A program made the translations under genes and the position numbers. A model generated the notes under the pieces. That model had not been told where the DNA came from and did no database searches. It saw nothing but the letters and a program-made list of their open reading frames with translations. From assembly GCA_010093705.1 (NCBI GenBank), contig MU006090.1, positions 1 through 64,000 on the forward strand: DNA of 64,000 bases, in the 5' to 3' direction. Positions 15,113 to 21,877 of the stretch are shown here, in pieces. How positions within the stretch are numbered: position 1 is the stretch's first letter; each line of letters starts with the position of its first letter. The stretch comes from Patellaria atrata CBS 101060 (taxonomy: Eukaryota).

Positions 15113-18100
15113 TCACGCCAATAACGCCTTGTAATATCTCAAGCTCAGCTGCAGCGTATGCTTGAGATAGGCATCTTCCGTGAGTGGAAGGCTGAGGACC
15201 TCATTCCCAGTCTGCAATTTTGTCTTCTGCATAACCGTTAGCCAATGCAACACACCAAGCACAACACCAAACTAGAAGGACTCACTTCGCCTTTGACACC
15301 CAACTCAGCCACCACCCTTGCCATCTCCCTGACGGCCGCTCTCTCCAAGAGAGCATCTCTACTCCCAGTACTAGTACCGGCTTCTACTCTCCTGCCCCAT
15401 CCCTCCAATGCCTTTCCTAGCCCTTTTCTAACCTCCTCTCGCTCGAGTTCCTCATCTCTACCCACTCTCAACCCTCCAACATCCACCAATCTTACAAAAT
15501 CGAAGAGCACCTCTCCTCCTTCATTCCAAGCCCTCACACCTCCTCCTCTCGCCTCCTCCAAAAAGCCACCTAGCAGAGTCCTCATCTCGTCATAATCCCT
15601 TTCAATGATGCATCTTGGCCCCACGATTCTACAAAGAACATCGTGCGCGTCGTTCCACTTCCCAGCACGCATGAGTGCTCGCGTCTCTTGTTCCGGTGAC
15701 CGTAGGACAGCACGCGCATACATCGCTTTGGCAGACCAGAGCCAGTCCGCCGGAAGCTTGAGTGTATCGACGAGAGGATCATAGGCGCTGGAGTTGGGAG
15801 ATGCATCTGGGGATTCTTGATCAGGGATGAGGTTCTGTGAGTGGAGGGGAAGGAGATCTTGGATCGCTTTCTGGCGCGCGTGTGGATCGGAAATGTGTGT
15901 CAAGACCCAGATAGCGGTGTTGAATGCGTTGCGGTAATTGTCGTCCGGGATTTTAGGCGGAGGCGTGCAGGCAGAGATGAGGGCATTAGCGTAGGTAACG
16001 GTGAGTTCGTCTGCTGTTGCCGAGATGCGCGATTCGACCGCTTTATTCTTTGACTTGCAGAGGATTCGCTTGGCACGGAGGAGATGAATAAGCTGGAAGC
16101 TGAGACGGGCGTCGAGGGGGTTGCCAGCAGTGTTTTCTGGTCTGAGAATCTCTTCCATGCGGTCATGGGTGTTGTTGGCGGTATGAGAGGTGTAAAGCTT
16201 GAGTAAACCCCAGAGGATGTCCTCTCGAGAATCAGGGGAAGAATCTATCCAGCCTTGATCGACTTTTTGTTCAAGGAACCAGGGGAGAGGTTTCAATTCT
16301 CGCATGTCGCCATTCCTAGAGTTGAGCTCCTCATTATAGGAGTGAACAGCTGCTTCTAGGCCCTCATCATCAAGTATACCATACCAAAGACGTACACCGA
16401 AGGATCGACGCCAGTCAATCTTGAACCGGCGAGAAAGTTTGAAAGACGGTACTTCATTCTCTGCACCGTGACCCTCCTGGCCTGTACAAACGCTGCAGTT
16501 TCCCGCTACCAGTTCATACAAGGCGCGTATCTCATCGACCATCTCGGAAAGAGTGTTCTGATGACGCCAATCCTCAATCTGCTTCCGCATATCTTCGTGA
16601 ACCTTTTCATTACCACCGATTTGAGCGACCATGGTGGCAAGCCTGAAGTTACGTCCAGCGACTAAAGCGGCGCACGCATCGACGACATTGTGGCCTGTGA
16701 GGTGGAATAGAGCCTTCTCCTCCTGGGTAGGCGCTTGGAAAGCCTGCTTATCCGCATCTGGCTGAACAACCTTAGCCCAGAAAGCTGACAACTTATCCTT
16801 CCGTAAGCGCCATTCGTAGCGCTCGTAGTCTTGAGGCAATACTCCCTTTGGAAACTCGCTGCTAACGTCATCGAAAAGGATGCTGGCCAATTGCCAAACT
16901 TGTTGTTCGTGAACACCAGCAGGAGTATCCGTCACAACAGCTTCAGCAATCTGTTCGAAGTCAAATTCTTCTTGGTTAATGACGGCTCCAGGTATATCGG
17001 CATTATTGGTACGTATCACTGTGAACTTCTTCTGCGCAACGATCGCATCAGGTACAAGCTTAGAGAGTATATTAAGCTTAGCGAACCGGACATCTTTGTG
17101 TTCAGAGACTATGGATCGGTTGATGTTCCTGAGCACGCCCGAGGTCAGAGACGGTGCACCCCCTGGGATTGTATATACCAAGGTACCATCGGGATTCCAG
17201 CTTGGTTTGTTGGACTCGTGAAAGGCTTTGTCATTCGCATTCATGGTGTCAACATCGGCAGTTTTAGGTTTCTTCGCATAGGGCCACTAGACACAAAAAT
17301 ATTCAGCAATATGTTCTCAATTTAGTAACTACATACATGAGCGGGCTCAACATCAGGCCCGTAAGGACACTACAAATTTCCGTCACGCATTCCAAGCCCG
17401 CTCATACTATAACTAAAGGATATTAGGGGAGTCAAACCTCGAAACCATTTCCTGCCGAACCCTGCCTCTTTCCCTTCGACGATGCGTTGCCAAAGTCCTG
17501 GCTGAAAAGCGACTTCATAAGATCAATACTTGTAGCAAAAGGCTTATCGTTCGACGCCGACCTCACAAGATCTTTCTCGTTGCGCGCCTTCAAAACATTC
17601 GCTTGACTCTCCCGTAATGCCTGTCGATCCTGTTTCTTAGGACTAATGGTCCGTTGTAATTGGTCTGCCCAGTTCGAATCAAACGCTGTTCGTGACTTTG
17701 CTGGAGTATCCAGAGCAGATTTACTAGCTTTAAGAATTGACTTGGGTATAAAGACACCGGTCCGAGAAGGATCGCCAAGGCTATTGACGCTTGATAGCAC
17801 CATGGTATGACCTGGCTGTGGAAAAGAACCGGCCACGCTCTGATCTTCAACCGAGCCCTGTTCACTGTCGTACACGGCGGATTCATCGCTGCCGTCCATC
17901 CCAACTGAACCCACGGAGCGCTCGTCTAGGAAAGACTCCGCTGAATGCTGAGTGTGTTCGGGCTCCCGCACAGCTGGGCTTCCTTGCTCATACAAACTTC
18001 CATCATCTCTGTCATCTTCCTCATCTCCGTCGTCGTATGGTATCATGGAATCCTCGTCGAACCCACCAGGAAGTGCAACTTTCTTGCATTTCTTGAATTC

Positions 18101-21100
18101 GAAGGTATCATCCGGACTCGATGCAGGTGGGCTTAGTAAAGAATCATCTCCTCGCAAAGAGGAGCTCGTTGGATGAGGAGTGCGACCAGCAGGCGTTGGT
18201 GAATCGGGTGGATCGGTGAGCATGGTTTCATCCTCATCATCGTCGTAGTCCAGCCCATAGGTGCTGTAGTGCTGCACTCTGAAAACCCATGTACCGGTCT
18301 TCTTTATGTAATCGATGTACTCCGTATTTGCGACTCGTCTGAGACGCTTGATGTGCTTTTCAACACGAGCACCAGTCATCTCAAAGACATGTATGTTACC
18401 ACCTTCAACCTTGGGCCACGAGTTTTCCAAATAAATTGTTGAGGGAACGTTGAGGCCTTGACCCTGAGGAGGCTTCCTAAATCCGCATGTGTTGCTGTAC
18501 ACGGTGGCGTGTCTAACCTCGAGCTCAATAATTGTTCCCAAAAGCTTTTCTAATGGAATATTGGTCAAGTCCACAGGATCAAACTCAATCCTTCCGACGC
18601 CTTGACGGCCGACAACGAGACTTACCCGTTTCAACTGGGAAGAATCCATCTTGCGCAGCTCATCTAGAGATGGCTTAGACCAGTAAGCTCCAGGTTTCTG
18701 ATCAACCTGATTCCGTTTAGCTTCCTCGTTGGCGGTAGTCAATTTGCTCGACGAGTTAGAGGAAGTTGATGAAGAGACATCTTCGGCAACAGATGCTAGA
18801 ATCCCTCCTCCCTGGCGTCTCGAGGAAGCTCCGTTCACCTGTTGGGATTTTGGTGTAGTCCTTGTCTGCGAAGTTGTTGTTCGCGCAGTGCTGACTGGCT
18901 CAGCGCTTATTGCTGGAGCAGAAGTAGAATCAGGAGTAACATCAGGGGTAGGACTAGGTGACTCGGTCCGGACCAAAGCAGTGCTTGTCTTAGCATCAGT
19001 AGATGACGTACCACTTGTTCCATGAGTATCGAAGCTGACTCGCTTCTTAGGAACTGCTGGGACAGCATCCTCCTCGGTGTCGTTCTCCTCACCAAACAAT
19101 GATGGCCTCGCGGTCCTCAGATTGCGATTGATGCTGAGGCGCTTCAAGCTATTAGATTGGTAACCACGGGATCCGTTCGCATTGAGGGCACCGGGGACGA
19201 GAATACTCTCCTCTGGATTCCAGGATTGACGCAAATTGCTAGTGGACAAGCTCTTGCCCAGGGATCTGCCGATACTACCGCCGAGTAAACTGCTCCCCAG
19301 AGGGCTGGATGTGGCGCTTCCGGGTGTGCCATACGTAGAGTAGGAGAAACCATAGCCGCCGGTCCGTTTTTGTGGGGTGATCAGCCTGGTAGATGCAGCT
19401 GGATTGATCTTATACTGAGGTATAATTGCACTCTTCCTCATCTTCTGAGCACTCGACAAGGGAGTGGCTAACGGGCCAACGGACTGACTAGGGGTATCCA
19501 AGCTTTGGAAAAGAGGGCCATTCCCGTAAGGGTTGTCCTGAAGTGAGGCTTGGAGTCGCAACCCTTGGTTTTGTTGCGGCCCTTGCTGGCTGGAAAAAAG
19601 ACCGTTGTTCATCTGCGGCTGCTGTTGCTGTTGATTTTGGGTGTTGGTAAAAAGCGAATTACCAAGGCCGCCTTGATTGTTAGCATTGTTTTGAGCTCCA
19701 AAAAGATTGGTACCGGTAGTTGTGGAAGGATTCGCATTCAGACCTCCGAAGAGCGAGGGCTTTTGTTGCTGGTTGGTATTGTTTGGAAAGAGCCCACCAG
19801 CCTGCTGCTGGTTGTTCTGATTGTTGTTCAAGTTGCCGAATAACGAGCTTGATCCCGTATTTGGAGTCGTTGTACTTCCGAATAACGTACCTGTCGCAGG
19901 TTTGTTACCGAACAGACCGCCGCTCTGTTGTTGTTGTTGGTTGTTGGTGTTGCTCCCAAACAGCCCTCCACCCTGTTGCTGGGTATTGTTCTGCGCCCCG
20001 AATAATCCACCTCCAGTTCCGGTGGTGTTGCTCCCGAAGAGGCCTCCTGGTTTCTGCTGGGTCTGATTGTTGTTTCCAAAACCTCCAAAGAGACCTCCGG
20101 TCTGATTTTGATTTTGGTTTTGATTCTGATTTTGATTCTGATTGTTCTGACCGAAACCACCGAAGCCAGACGTGGCTGTATTCTGCTGCTGATTTCCGGC
20201 GCCAAACCCAGTGTTGGTGTTGGTATTCCCTCCAAAGAGACCGCTCCCCGTGGTTGTATTTGTATTCGATCCGAAAAGGCCAGTCCCGGTAGAGGTGTTG
20301 TTGTTGTTGTTGTTGGTAGTCGCGCCAAATCCTCCAAAAGCAGGCTTGTTCTGAGTCTGGTTCTGGGCGCCAAAAAGCCCTGCACCGGTTGTGTTGGTTC
20401 CAAAACCACTTCCAGTACCACCGAATGGAGTAGCGGTATTGCTCCCACTTGTGCCAAATAAATTTCCAGTTTGTTGAGCGGACGTTGTGGTTGTGCCTCC
20501 AAATAAACTCCCAGCGGCAGGTTTTGCGCCAAAAAGACCTGTGGTAGAATTAGTGCCGCCAAATGCAGTATTGGTGTTCGTGTTGGCCTGGGTATTTCCA
20601 AAGAGCGGAGTTGCGGTGGTGTTATTATTGGAACCGAACATACCCGTCCCAGTATTGCTGGTCCCGAAGGCAGTATTTGCATTGGTGTTTGCGTTACCAA
20701 AACCTCCAAACGTGTTCGTGGCACCGAAGGCACCCGCCTGTCCATTTTGGTTGCCGTATCTTCTGCCTTGGTTGTAATCGGCCAATCTCAGCTCTTCCAG
20801 GGACCAAGTTGAATACGGTGGCATGCATGAAATAGTTTGGTATTGCGACGTCGCTCCGCTTTGCCCAGCTTCCTTCTCCGTATGCGGCTGAAAAGGTGTC
20901 GCGGCCGTACCTTGCGGCTGTGTCGCATTTGCGTTGTTCGCACCAAACCCAGTTGTACCGAATGCTCCGGTGGTCGAGGTATTGGTATTGGCATTCGCGC
21001 CTCCAAAAGTAGCGTTACCTCCGCCAAAGAGACCACCTGCAGTACCTGTGTTTGCTGAACCAAATGCTGGCTTGTTAGCATTTCCAAACAATCCGCCGCT

Positions 21101-21877
21101 CGTTGTGTTGGTGTTGTTATTGCTTCCTCCGAAGAGTGAAGTCCCTCCAGTATTCTGCGCACCAAAACCGGTAGAGCCAAAGCCAGAGCCCGACGTTGCA
21201 GTGGTGCCACCACCGAAAAGGCCCCCGCTGGAAGTGGTATTCGTTGCTCCGAAACCGGATTTGGTGCCGCCGAAGGCAGGTGTTGTGTTTGTTGAACCGA
21301 AACCTACTCGAATGATGTTAGAACCAGTCTTCGTGATGTACGTTTAGATGCAACTATCGCGAATCGATGAGAACACTCTTGTCGCGATGAATTTCTCGGG
21401 CCAGAGAACACGATAAAGCTTCCCGATGGATGCAATTGAGGCTAACCAGCTCTCGATGAGCTGGCCGCTGCGCAGCCGAAAACAAAAGGCGATAAGTATA
21501 AGATTGCAGGTCAACAAGTCACATACCTCCGAAGGCCGTTCCAGTGGTATTGTTATTATTGCTTCCAAAGAGACCACCACTGGTGGTGTTGTTGGTATTG
21601 GTGGCGCCAAAACCGAAGCCAGAGCCTGAAATGCAGGAGATGACCAGTTAATGTGAGGTTCAGATGCGTGCTGGAAGCAGACTCGATCGATCGCGGGAAA
21701 CCCAAGGTCTCGAGGTCGACAAGCAAGAAGAAAATGCAAAAGGAACTGGTTCGACTTACCTCCAGATGCGTTATTAGCGTTGTTATTATTGTTGGCACCG
21801 AATCCAGCAAAGGTGCTGCCGCTAGACTGATTGGTGTTGTTCACCCCGAAGCCAGCGAAGCCTCCACCGAAAGACAT
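15113..21877 (-). CDS. NUP98: Nucleoporin Nup98-Nup96 precursor (Nup145/SonB-like); exons 21877-21760, 21625-21527, 21303-17438, 17286-15286, ~15226-15113
   Basis: GLFG repeats, GLEBS motif SLEELRLADY, autopeptidase domain ending FRVQHYSTYGLD, Nup96 helical region, last exon LPLTEDAYL. Confidence 0.93.

Follow-up and report, generated by a model that had tools for sequence, protein, structure and literature searches.

Many fungi encode the nucleoporins Nup98 and Nup96 in one self-cleaving precursor, which yields them in a 1:1 ratio. Nuclear pores have been reported to hold more Nup98-type copies than Nup96, and human and fission yeast solve the problem through Nup98-only transcripts. Whether a filamentous ascomycete might do the same is the question raised by a 151-nucleotide (nt) intron in the Nup98-Nup96 (SonB/Nup145/Nup189-type) gene of Patellaria atrata CBS 101060. 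The gene lies on the minus strand of contig MU006090.1 (assembly GCA_010093705.1), of which positions 1 to 64,000 were analysed (the window). Our preferred answer, to which we give a probability of roughly 0.45 on the basis of sequence comparison, is that the intron could be an ancient, deliberately inefficient gate that yields Nup98-only transcripts. Every lineage has off-consensus splice signals and an early in-frame stop, and the length and inner blocks are conserved as well; taken together, this speaks for an inefficient intron maintained by selection. A weak intron with a stop in its donor, placed at the border of the folded Nup96 part, is a concrete and testable candidate for setting the Nup98:Nup96 ratio. 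Were it constitutively spliced, it would still be an unusual case of splice signals kept off consensus over several fungal classes. A switch of the Nup98:Nup96 ratio had been suggested in a preliminary description of the window, and the comparison with relatives lends that idea real but indirect support. Our literature searches, conducted largely by listings, found no published account of this intron or of Nup98-only production in filamentous ascomycetes.

Position and signals of the intron

Two minus-strand open reading frames (ORFs) make up the gene: translation and Pfam place FG repeats, a GLEBS motif and the S59 autopeptidase domain in 21343..17432 and the Nup96 domain in 17286..15238. The sequence at the junction reads GGT TTC GAG/GTT TGA ... 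TGTGTCTAG/TGG CCC TAT (slashes mark splice or cleavage positions throughout). The intron therefore occupies 17437..17287, is 151 nt long and lies in phase 0, and read-through meets a stop at codon 2. This agrees in both borders and frame with the preliminary description, which had pointed to the weak GTTTGA donor and the stop it holds (GFE-V-stop). The features of the gene and intron are as follows.

17438..21303, minus strand: exon A, with FG/GLFG repeats, GLEBS, S59 autopeptidase domain and a 276-amino-acid (aa) acidic, Ser-rich linker ending GFE (from translation, Pfam and the acceptor as read)
18263..18271, minus strand: autocleavage tripeptide H-Y/S, with the Ser codon at 18265-18263, inside PF04096
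17287..17437, minus strand: intron between GFE and WPY, 151 nt, phase 0, GTTTGA...CTAG
17432..17437, minus strand: donor GTTTGA (weak), with the in-frame TGA at 17434-17432 and the frame GFE-V-stop
17425..17431, minus strand: pyrimidine block CTCCCCT directly after the donor, kept as YYCCYY in orthologue alignments
17329..17337, minus strand: inner motif TGTATGTAG, within which GTATGT (17336-17331) resembles a consensus donor and begins 50 nt ahead of the intron 3' end
17313..17323, minus strand: A-rich block AAATTGAGAAC, kept as AATNGARAAY in orthologue alignments
17302..17306, minus strand: likely branch site CTGAA, with its A 16 nt from the 3' splice site
15286..17286, minus strand: exon B, the structured Nup96/Nup145C part, first residues WPY
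15227..15285, minus strand: ordinary comparison intron of the same gene, 59 nt, with GTGAGT, CTAAC and CAG

Across the junction, GFE/WPYAKK aligns without a gap in 17 of 47 full-length annotated orthologues, the remainder having gaps there that resemble alternative gene models. In these 17 orthologues and in three transcript-like contigs discussed below, the GT...AG borders restore the homologous frame, as expected of a U2-type intron. No CTRAY is found in the window intron 10-40 nt from the 3' splice site, the range holding just CTGAA (A at 16 nt) and CTAAA (A at 35 nt); as CTGAA is near-consensus, we still count the sequence as a U2-type intron. The original observation that there is no consensus CTRAY branch point is correct for this usual range only, since the intron does hold a CTAAT (nt 12) and a CTGAT (nt 82), the latter with its A 66 nt away from the 3' end. 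The other introns of the window have GTGAGT or GTATGT donors and CTAAC branch sites. A length of three times the local norm, as first estimated, fits the 59-nt intron at the 3' end of the gene but not a putative first intron of 223 nt. The latter (window 21304-21526, minus strand, a single intron being assumed) has consensus GTATGT/CTAAC/TAG signals and is longer than the intron studied here.

The intron had also been placed at the Nup98/Nup96 junction. It actually lies 828 nt (276 codons) 3' of the HY/S cleavage site, where the structured Nup96 begins; that the window protein is cleaved at HY/S is an assumption we make from knowledge of the family. In chain A of PDB 4ycz (a Sec13-Nup145C fusion, residues 337 onward), the Nup145C part begins WPYQQRPK, at the same residue as exon B, in what is a weak match judged by eye. 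This suggests that Nup98 and a disordered tail lie upstream of the intron and the folded Nup96 downstream. The expectation that no Nup96 fold is made without splicing is upheld. The pyrimidine block CTCCCCT may have a TIA1/Nam8-type role.

Orthologous introns in other fungi

A search with the linker region returned 942 proteins, the best of them 50% identical; those that are named come from Dothideomycetes and a few Eurotiomycetes and Lecanoromycetes. Among 72 short ORF-type proteins of relatives, 46 end exactly at ...(G)FEV, a first sign of a wide distribution of both the intron and its immediate stop. Scanning of metagenome contigs then provided 80 loci, and the intron could be excised from 62 of these. 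The remaining 18 comprise three without the intron (L076, L078 and L079), seven whose contig ends before exon B and eight in which the border rule failed; in six of these eight the exon-A frame again ends ..EV, ..QV or ..KV and then a stop. Near-identical introns were collapsed to 40 versions, the window's included.

The window intron matches orthologous introns by BLASTN over 59 nt at 80% and over 34 nt at 88%; compared with the 80% match over 59 nt, the flanking linker protein is merely 35-54% identical among loci. A crude comparison of intron with flanking exon identity (65% vs 63-64%), made without a random baseline, was not used. In a FastTree phylogeny of the Nup96 part (37 rows), the window sequence is nearest to Coniosporium apollinis (51% identity), L032 and L066 (GTTTGA, 153-155 nt) group with Aureobasidium, and L060 (GTTTGA, 142 nt) groups with Arachnomyces (Eurotiomycetes) with 100% local support. 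L027 falls near Pycnora at an unresolved fork, and the annotated protein of Pleopsidium flavum (Lecanoromycetes) ends ..SFEV. These genera belong to the Dothideomycetes, Eurotiomycetes and Lecanoromycetes, and sequence placement thus indicates that the GFE/WPY intron spans at least these three classes.

This distribution bears on a further alternative, in which an introner-like or miniature inverted-repeat element gave rise to the intron or to the extra 45 nt within it; that the intron might be one of many introner-like copies had been raised in the preliminary description. In 2012, van der Burgt et al. reportedly described the introner-like elements of Dothideomycetes as multi-copy recent gains, forming longer introns with stable predicted structure. 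The window intron resembles these in being longer and more structured than typical introns and in coming from the same fungal class. However, it is single-copy in the window, with no second copy of arm or intron within the 64 kb, and 62 of 80 loci, from several classes, share its position and phase. Being orthologous across classes, it is not a recent introner-like gain, and this origin is hardly credible.

The 40 versions vary in length from 74 to 203 nt with a median of 142 nt, and 38 of them reach 110 nt or more. At donor position +3, T is found in 38 and C in two, a purine in none, and +5 is G in all 40; the commonest donors are GTTTGA (18 versions) and GTTGGT (10), the others being close variants. 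Every version has an early in-frame stop: TGA at +4..+6 in 20, and a first in-frame stop at codons 6-10 in the other 20. The pyrimidine block after the donor (CTCCCC, TTCCT) is conserved. All 40 have a CTRAR branch site, in the form CTAAA, CTAAG, CTGAG or CTGAA, and the distance of its A from the 3' end is 11-22 nt; CTRAY occurs in range in just two. Further inside, 30 of 40 carry the inner motif TGTAYNTAG, scored as TA[CTA]NTA[GA], whose TA core starts at a median distance of 47 nt from the 3' end; the conserved A-rich block AATNGARAAY comes next after the motif. A sub-family of nine shares a nearly invariant stretch of approximately 35 nt, RGGGCC-N4-GTTGMGCCCGCTCA, upstream of the motif. As a control, the next downstream intron in the same genes (23 unique sequences) has a median length of 62 nt and mostly GTAAG or GTGAG donors; the rule used to pick these introns rewarded consensus signals, so that only the comparison of length is unbiased. 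T at +4 is associated with A at +6 (20/23 vs 4/17, counted by hand), but this probably reflects two old haplotypes and is therefore not counted as selection for TGA.

Two other ideas about the inner region were dropped. That TAG serves as a frame-specific stop for exon B does not hold, as the TAG lies 45 nt from the 3' end in the window but 40 nt from it in L019 and so has no fixed frame (by eye, two introns). A nested (twin) intron or recursive splicing was rejected because inspection by eye revealed no split donor and no general AG/GT site, TAG/GTAG being present only in the L023-type and L057 introns.

The most serious rival to an inefficient gate is an ordinary, always-spliced intron, in which the conserved blocks are enhancers that offset old weak signals and the hairpin described below is neutral, the adjacent conserved block having undergone a small inverted duplication. 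We regard this as possible but somewhat unlikely. It leaves unexplained that none of the 40 versions has a purine at donor +3 or a pyrimidine-ended branch site in the usual place, though single changes would improve both. The early in-frame stop in all 40 and a length kept at approximately 140 nt, against approximately 62 nt for the neighbouring intron, are likewise at odds with it. The RNA structure and the contigs, considered below, speak in its favour.

For the gate, we propose that use of the outer donor GTTTGA would give the full Nup98-Nup96 precursor. Where the outer donor is not used, the frame would close at the donor TGA to give Nup98 with a 277-residue tail and no Nup96, and self-cleavage would then remove the tail. 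The inner module (TGTAYNTAG, A-rich block and weak branch site) would direct 3'-end formation within the intron and so produce a stable short mRNA, with plain retention as a fallback. Formation of a 3' end within the intron is the route to the short product that we consider most likely; the isoforms other than the spliced one, as well as the polyadenylation (poly(A)) reading, are what we infer. Passages of PMC11368178, on the poly(A) signals of Schizosaccharomyces pombe and Saccharomyces cerevisiae, describe UAG, GUA and an A-rich element at -20 for S. pombe, and passages of PMC3111234 describe AAUGAA-type words in Aspergillus oryzae. The order seen in the window and its orthologues matches what these passages describe: a UGUA/UAYRUA/UAG word, an A-rich AAUGAA-like word and a U-rich stretch. 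Ten A. oryzae poly(A) hexamers were found in the 3' part of 17 of 40 introns (shuffles: 11.0 ± 2.7); for the 5' part the count is 6 of 38. The similarity to A. oryzae poly(A) sites is one of motifs, and it is limited in that the window copy is without the top hexamers and the enrichment in relatives is modest.

RNA structure in the window intron

The preliminary description had drawn attention to a long hairpin within the intron, and its core, a perfect 11-bp inverted repeat at 17337-17347 / 17395-17405, was found at exactly these positions. The structural elements of the window are listed here, including a second complementarity that links the two exons.

17395..17405, minus strand: hairpin 5' arm ATGAGCGGGCT, intron nt 33-43
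17337..17347, minus strand: hairpin 3' arm AGCCCGCTCAT, intron nt 91-101, which is the conserved block upstream of the inner motif
17321..17417, minus strand: extended hairpin, with the lower stem tttagt/actaaa and an inner stem
17441..17458, minus strand: end of exon A, complementary to the start of exon B (complementarity search, duplex test and fold)
17255..17272, minus strand: start of exon B, complementary to the end of exon A, with 7 + 6 perfect pairs

A fold of 101 nt (17320-17420) reaches -34.4 kcal/mol, compared with -23.2 ± 2.9 kcal/mol for dinucleotide shuffles (z -3.89), and none of 200 shuffles is as good. The fold of the whole intron is weaker (z -1.5; 8/200 shuffles as good). 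In the minimum-energy fold the main stem comprises 23 pairs, with 13-14 in an unbroken run, and so falls short of the approximately 28 bp first proposed; the inner stem is also present in the fold, as had been described. When the 14 nt upstream of the inner motif were tested for duplex formation with the upstream intron, the window gave -23.0 kcal/mol vs -10.7 kcal/mol in shuffles (0/300 as good). In the window, the unpaired probability of the block preceding the inner motif is 0.00, the lowest value among 30 introns. In total, the hairpin would loop out approximately 97 nt of the intron and leave approximately 54 nt.

The exon-to-exon pairs are UCGGCAG/CUGCCGA and GGUUUC/GAAACC, and would zip both splice sites together. 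The duplex that the final 35 nt of exon A can form with the initial 50 nt of exon B has an energy of -24.9 vs -16.7 kcal/mol, a value reached by 2 of 300 shuffles. When the 241-nt region is folded, its minimum-energy and centroid structures both contain the hairpin and this helix; the overall z of the region is -1.7. The exon-to-exon duplex is not conserved, with p < 0.05 in one of 39 orthologues.

The hairpin is similarly confined. None of 36 orthologues pairs beyond chance in the duplex test (p 0.09 to 0.95), from which 10 of 47 unique introns were dropped because the motif rule found no inner motif; the combined p-values of the eight sequences sharing the conserved block, calculated by hand, come to roughly p 0.2. 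Whole-intron z-scores are positive in 32 of 36 orthologues, which are thus mostly less structured than shuffles. A covariation analysis had been suggested as a check: the long stem is not kept, and all that RNAalifold retains for the nine-member sub-family is a mini-stem of 6 pairs (GGGCCG/..GCGCCC), among them one compensatory and one G-U pair. Of the two arms in the window, the 5' one falls in additional sequence with no counterpart in the eight closest-matching aligned orthologous introns; the 3' arm is the conserved block. Apparent compensatory changes in an outer stem RYGAG/CUCRY, noted by eye in L022 and L071, are not claimed because a 5-mer has an approximately 1-in-4 chance of a partner in 40 positions. 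Judged from these alignments, the long hairpin is specific to this lineage and not a conserved structured RNA element. The proposal that an RNA structure tunes the isoform choice consequently has no comparative support beyond this genome, the long hairpin being found in 0/36 orthologues. It is here that the always-spliced alternative gains ground: the hairpin is unconserved, 32 of the 36 orthologous introns have z above 0, and the 5' arm repeats the 3' block in inverted orientation, within a stretch that the eight aligned introns do not have.

If the intron is nevertheless a gate, the hairpin and exon-to-exon helix in the window would bury the inner block and cut the effective distance from outer donor to branch site to approximately 54 nt, and this burial and looping out by the hairpin would push the choice toward full-length mRNA. 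That the hairpin affects isoform choice seems to us rather doubtful. We are equally tentative about the fullest version of the proposal, in which an old gate intron across Pezizomycotina, with a crippled donor and branch site and an inner module, would yield a polyadenylated Nup98-only mRNA that sets the Nup98:Nup96 ratio, the window adding two RNA clamps (a 13-bp hairpin over the module and the exon-to-exon helix) toward the full-length form. A related precedent comes from budding yeast, where helices within introns reportedly bring the 5' splice site and branch point together, a role said to have been tested by mutation (Goguel and Rosbash 1993; Rogic et al. 2008). The window stem similarly loops out most of a long intron and is joined by an exon-to-exon helix, but it is an unconserved prediction.

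Another reading is a gate that works through competing 5' splice sites. Here, the inner GTATGT and the last 50 nt would form a normal small intron, the 101 nt left in the mRNA would include the TGA and lead to Nup98 only or to decay, and the hairpin would occlude the inner donor and so again favour the outer one. Consistent with this, the window has GTATGT with its first base 50 nt from the intron 3' end, and 16 of 40 versions have a GTAYGT at 40-62 nt from that end. Part of the motif falls within the extended stem, and the motif's unpaired probability in the window is 0.31 vs a mean of 0.51. However, the inner +5 G has been lost in many lineages (GTATCT, GTACTT, GTAATT, GTATTT, CATACATAG) while the next TAG is kept. 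The inner-donor junction was found in no contig, and a retained intron at this place is indistinguishable from DNA. We consider such competition improbable.

A conserved sequence inside an intron, and a stem-loop of approximately 97 nt, could also mean that the intron hosts a small RNA, either a small nucleolar RNA (snoRNA) or a microRNA-like RNA from the hairpin. The window has a weak SNORA29-like match (16.8 bits, E 6.5), which is far under the gathering score of 50, and no Rfam family matched the orthologous introns of 20 loci. No box C/D or H/ACA arrangement common to orthologous introns was seen by eye, and the hairpin is unique to the window, making a small RNA host very improbable.

Transcripts, short forms and known systems

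Three of the metagenome contigs look like spliced transcripts, as the 6336-nt L076 has one long frame of 1962 aa, and L078 and L079 are without four or five segments that are present in a related genomic locus, L032 (approximately 87% identity). L004 was considered as an intron-retaining transcript on account of its uninterrupted 713-aa downstream frame, but is uninformative because the genomic loci L032 and L066 also have an uninterrupted downstream frame. Contigs L023, L043 and L075 (1.07-1.13 kb) and L057 end inside the intron, 3-20 nt after the A-rich block. These four contig ends may be transcript 3' ends, which they would fit, but assembly breaks are just as likely, and the first three share nearly the same 5' end. 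Compared with L079, L078 lacks a 95-nt exon near the 5' end (L032:266-360), which may be exon skipping in the same gene.

A different short form is suggested by an 80-nt segment, GTCCGT...GCTGAC...CTCAG, in the coding linker of L032 (3636-3715; also in L066 and L067), approximately 70 codons after the HF/T cleavage site. This segment is read through in frame in the genomic sequence and is spliced out in both L078 and L079. Since its removal shifts the frame to a stop 16 codons later, it is an S. pombe-style exitron and leaves a Nup98-plus-tail frame. Among loci with a locatable FKK motif, the exitron is present in L032, L066 and L067 only, and the homologous site in the window holds no candidate.

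Several observations count against an inefficient gate. L076, L078 and L079, the only transcript-like contigs, all join GFE/WPY at the outer donor, and no short isoform was seen; this clean splicing is what an always-spliced intron would give. In the Aureobasidium-like clade, where the intron is accompanied by the exitron as a source of a Nup98-only frame, the gate may be unnecessary. The conservation of weak signals partly reflects shared ancestry, and GTTTGA and GTTGGT may be no more than two old haplotypes. As for the poly(A) reading, the 3' part of the window intron has none of the ten A. oryzae hexamers, and their enrichment in relatives is modest at approximately 2.3 standard deviations, the largest shuffle reaching 20. 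A retained intron would leave a 3' untranslated region of approximately 2 kb, making degradation likely. Finally, neither the hairpin nor the exon-to-exon helix occurs elsewhere; both could be neutral, and the helix was noticed post hoc.

The claim that Nup98-only transcripts occur in human and S. pombe is borne out by passages of Asakawa et al. 2015 (PMC4483485). According to these, the single S. pombe gene nup189 gives full-length and Nup98-plus-tail products by alternative splicing: a 65-nt intron is read through as coding sequence for the full-length form, and it is the spliced form that is short, with a 33-aa tail. As in these passages, an intron 3' of the self-cleavage site is the choice point proposed for the window, with the tail removed by autocleavage. 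The logic is reversed, however, as splicing of the window intron is required for Nup96, the stop is in the donor, the predicted tail is 277 aa and the intron is 828 nt from the cleavage site. Tested as an S. pombe-type exitron, the window intron fails with a stop at intron codon 2. For human NUP98, work cited in the same passages of PMC4483485 describes a short mRNA that encodes Nup98 and a short cleaved tail without Nup96, so that Nup98 is in excess. This is a separate Nup98-only transcript, as proposed for the window, although the architecture is that of an animal gene.

Annotation of this locus varies among public genomes. Among the NCBI gene models P0042, P0059, P0096, P0100 and P0023, as well as P0011 and P0017, several stop at ...FEV or ...FEVRA at this intron, and others use a different splice site just before WPY. 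For Ascochyta lentis, both a 1264-aa and a 2019-aa model of the nucleoporin gene exist. The weak donor seems to mislead gene prediction: a weak, stop-bearing donor explains public models that stop at ...GFEV or use odd splice sites. In one relative, a 5S rRNA gene (L005:6889-7008) lies approximately 2.7 kb downstream of the nucleoporin gene.

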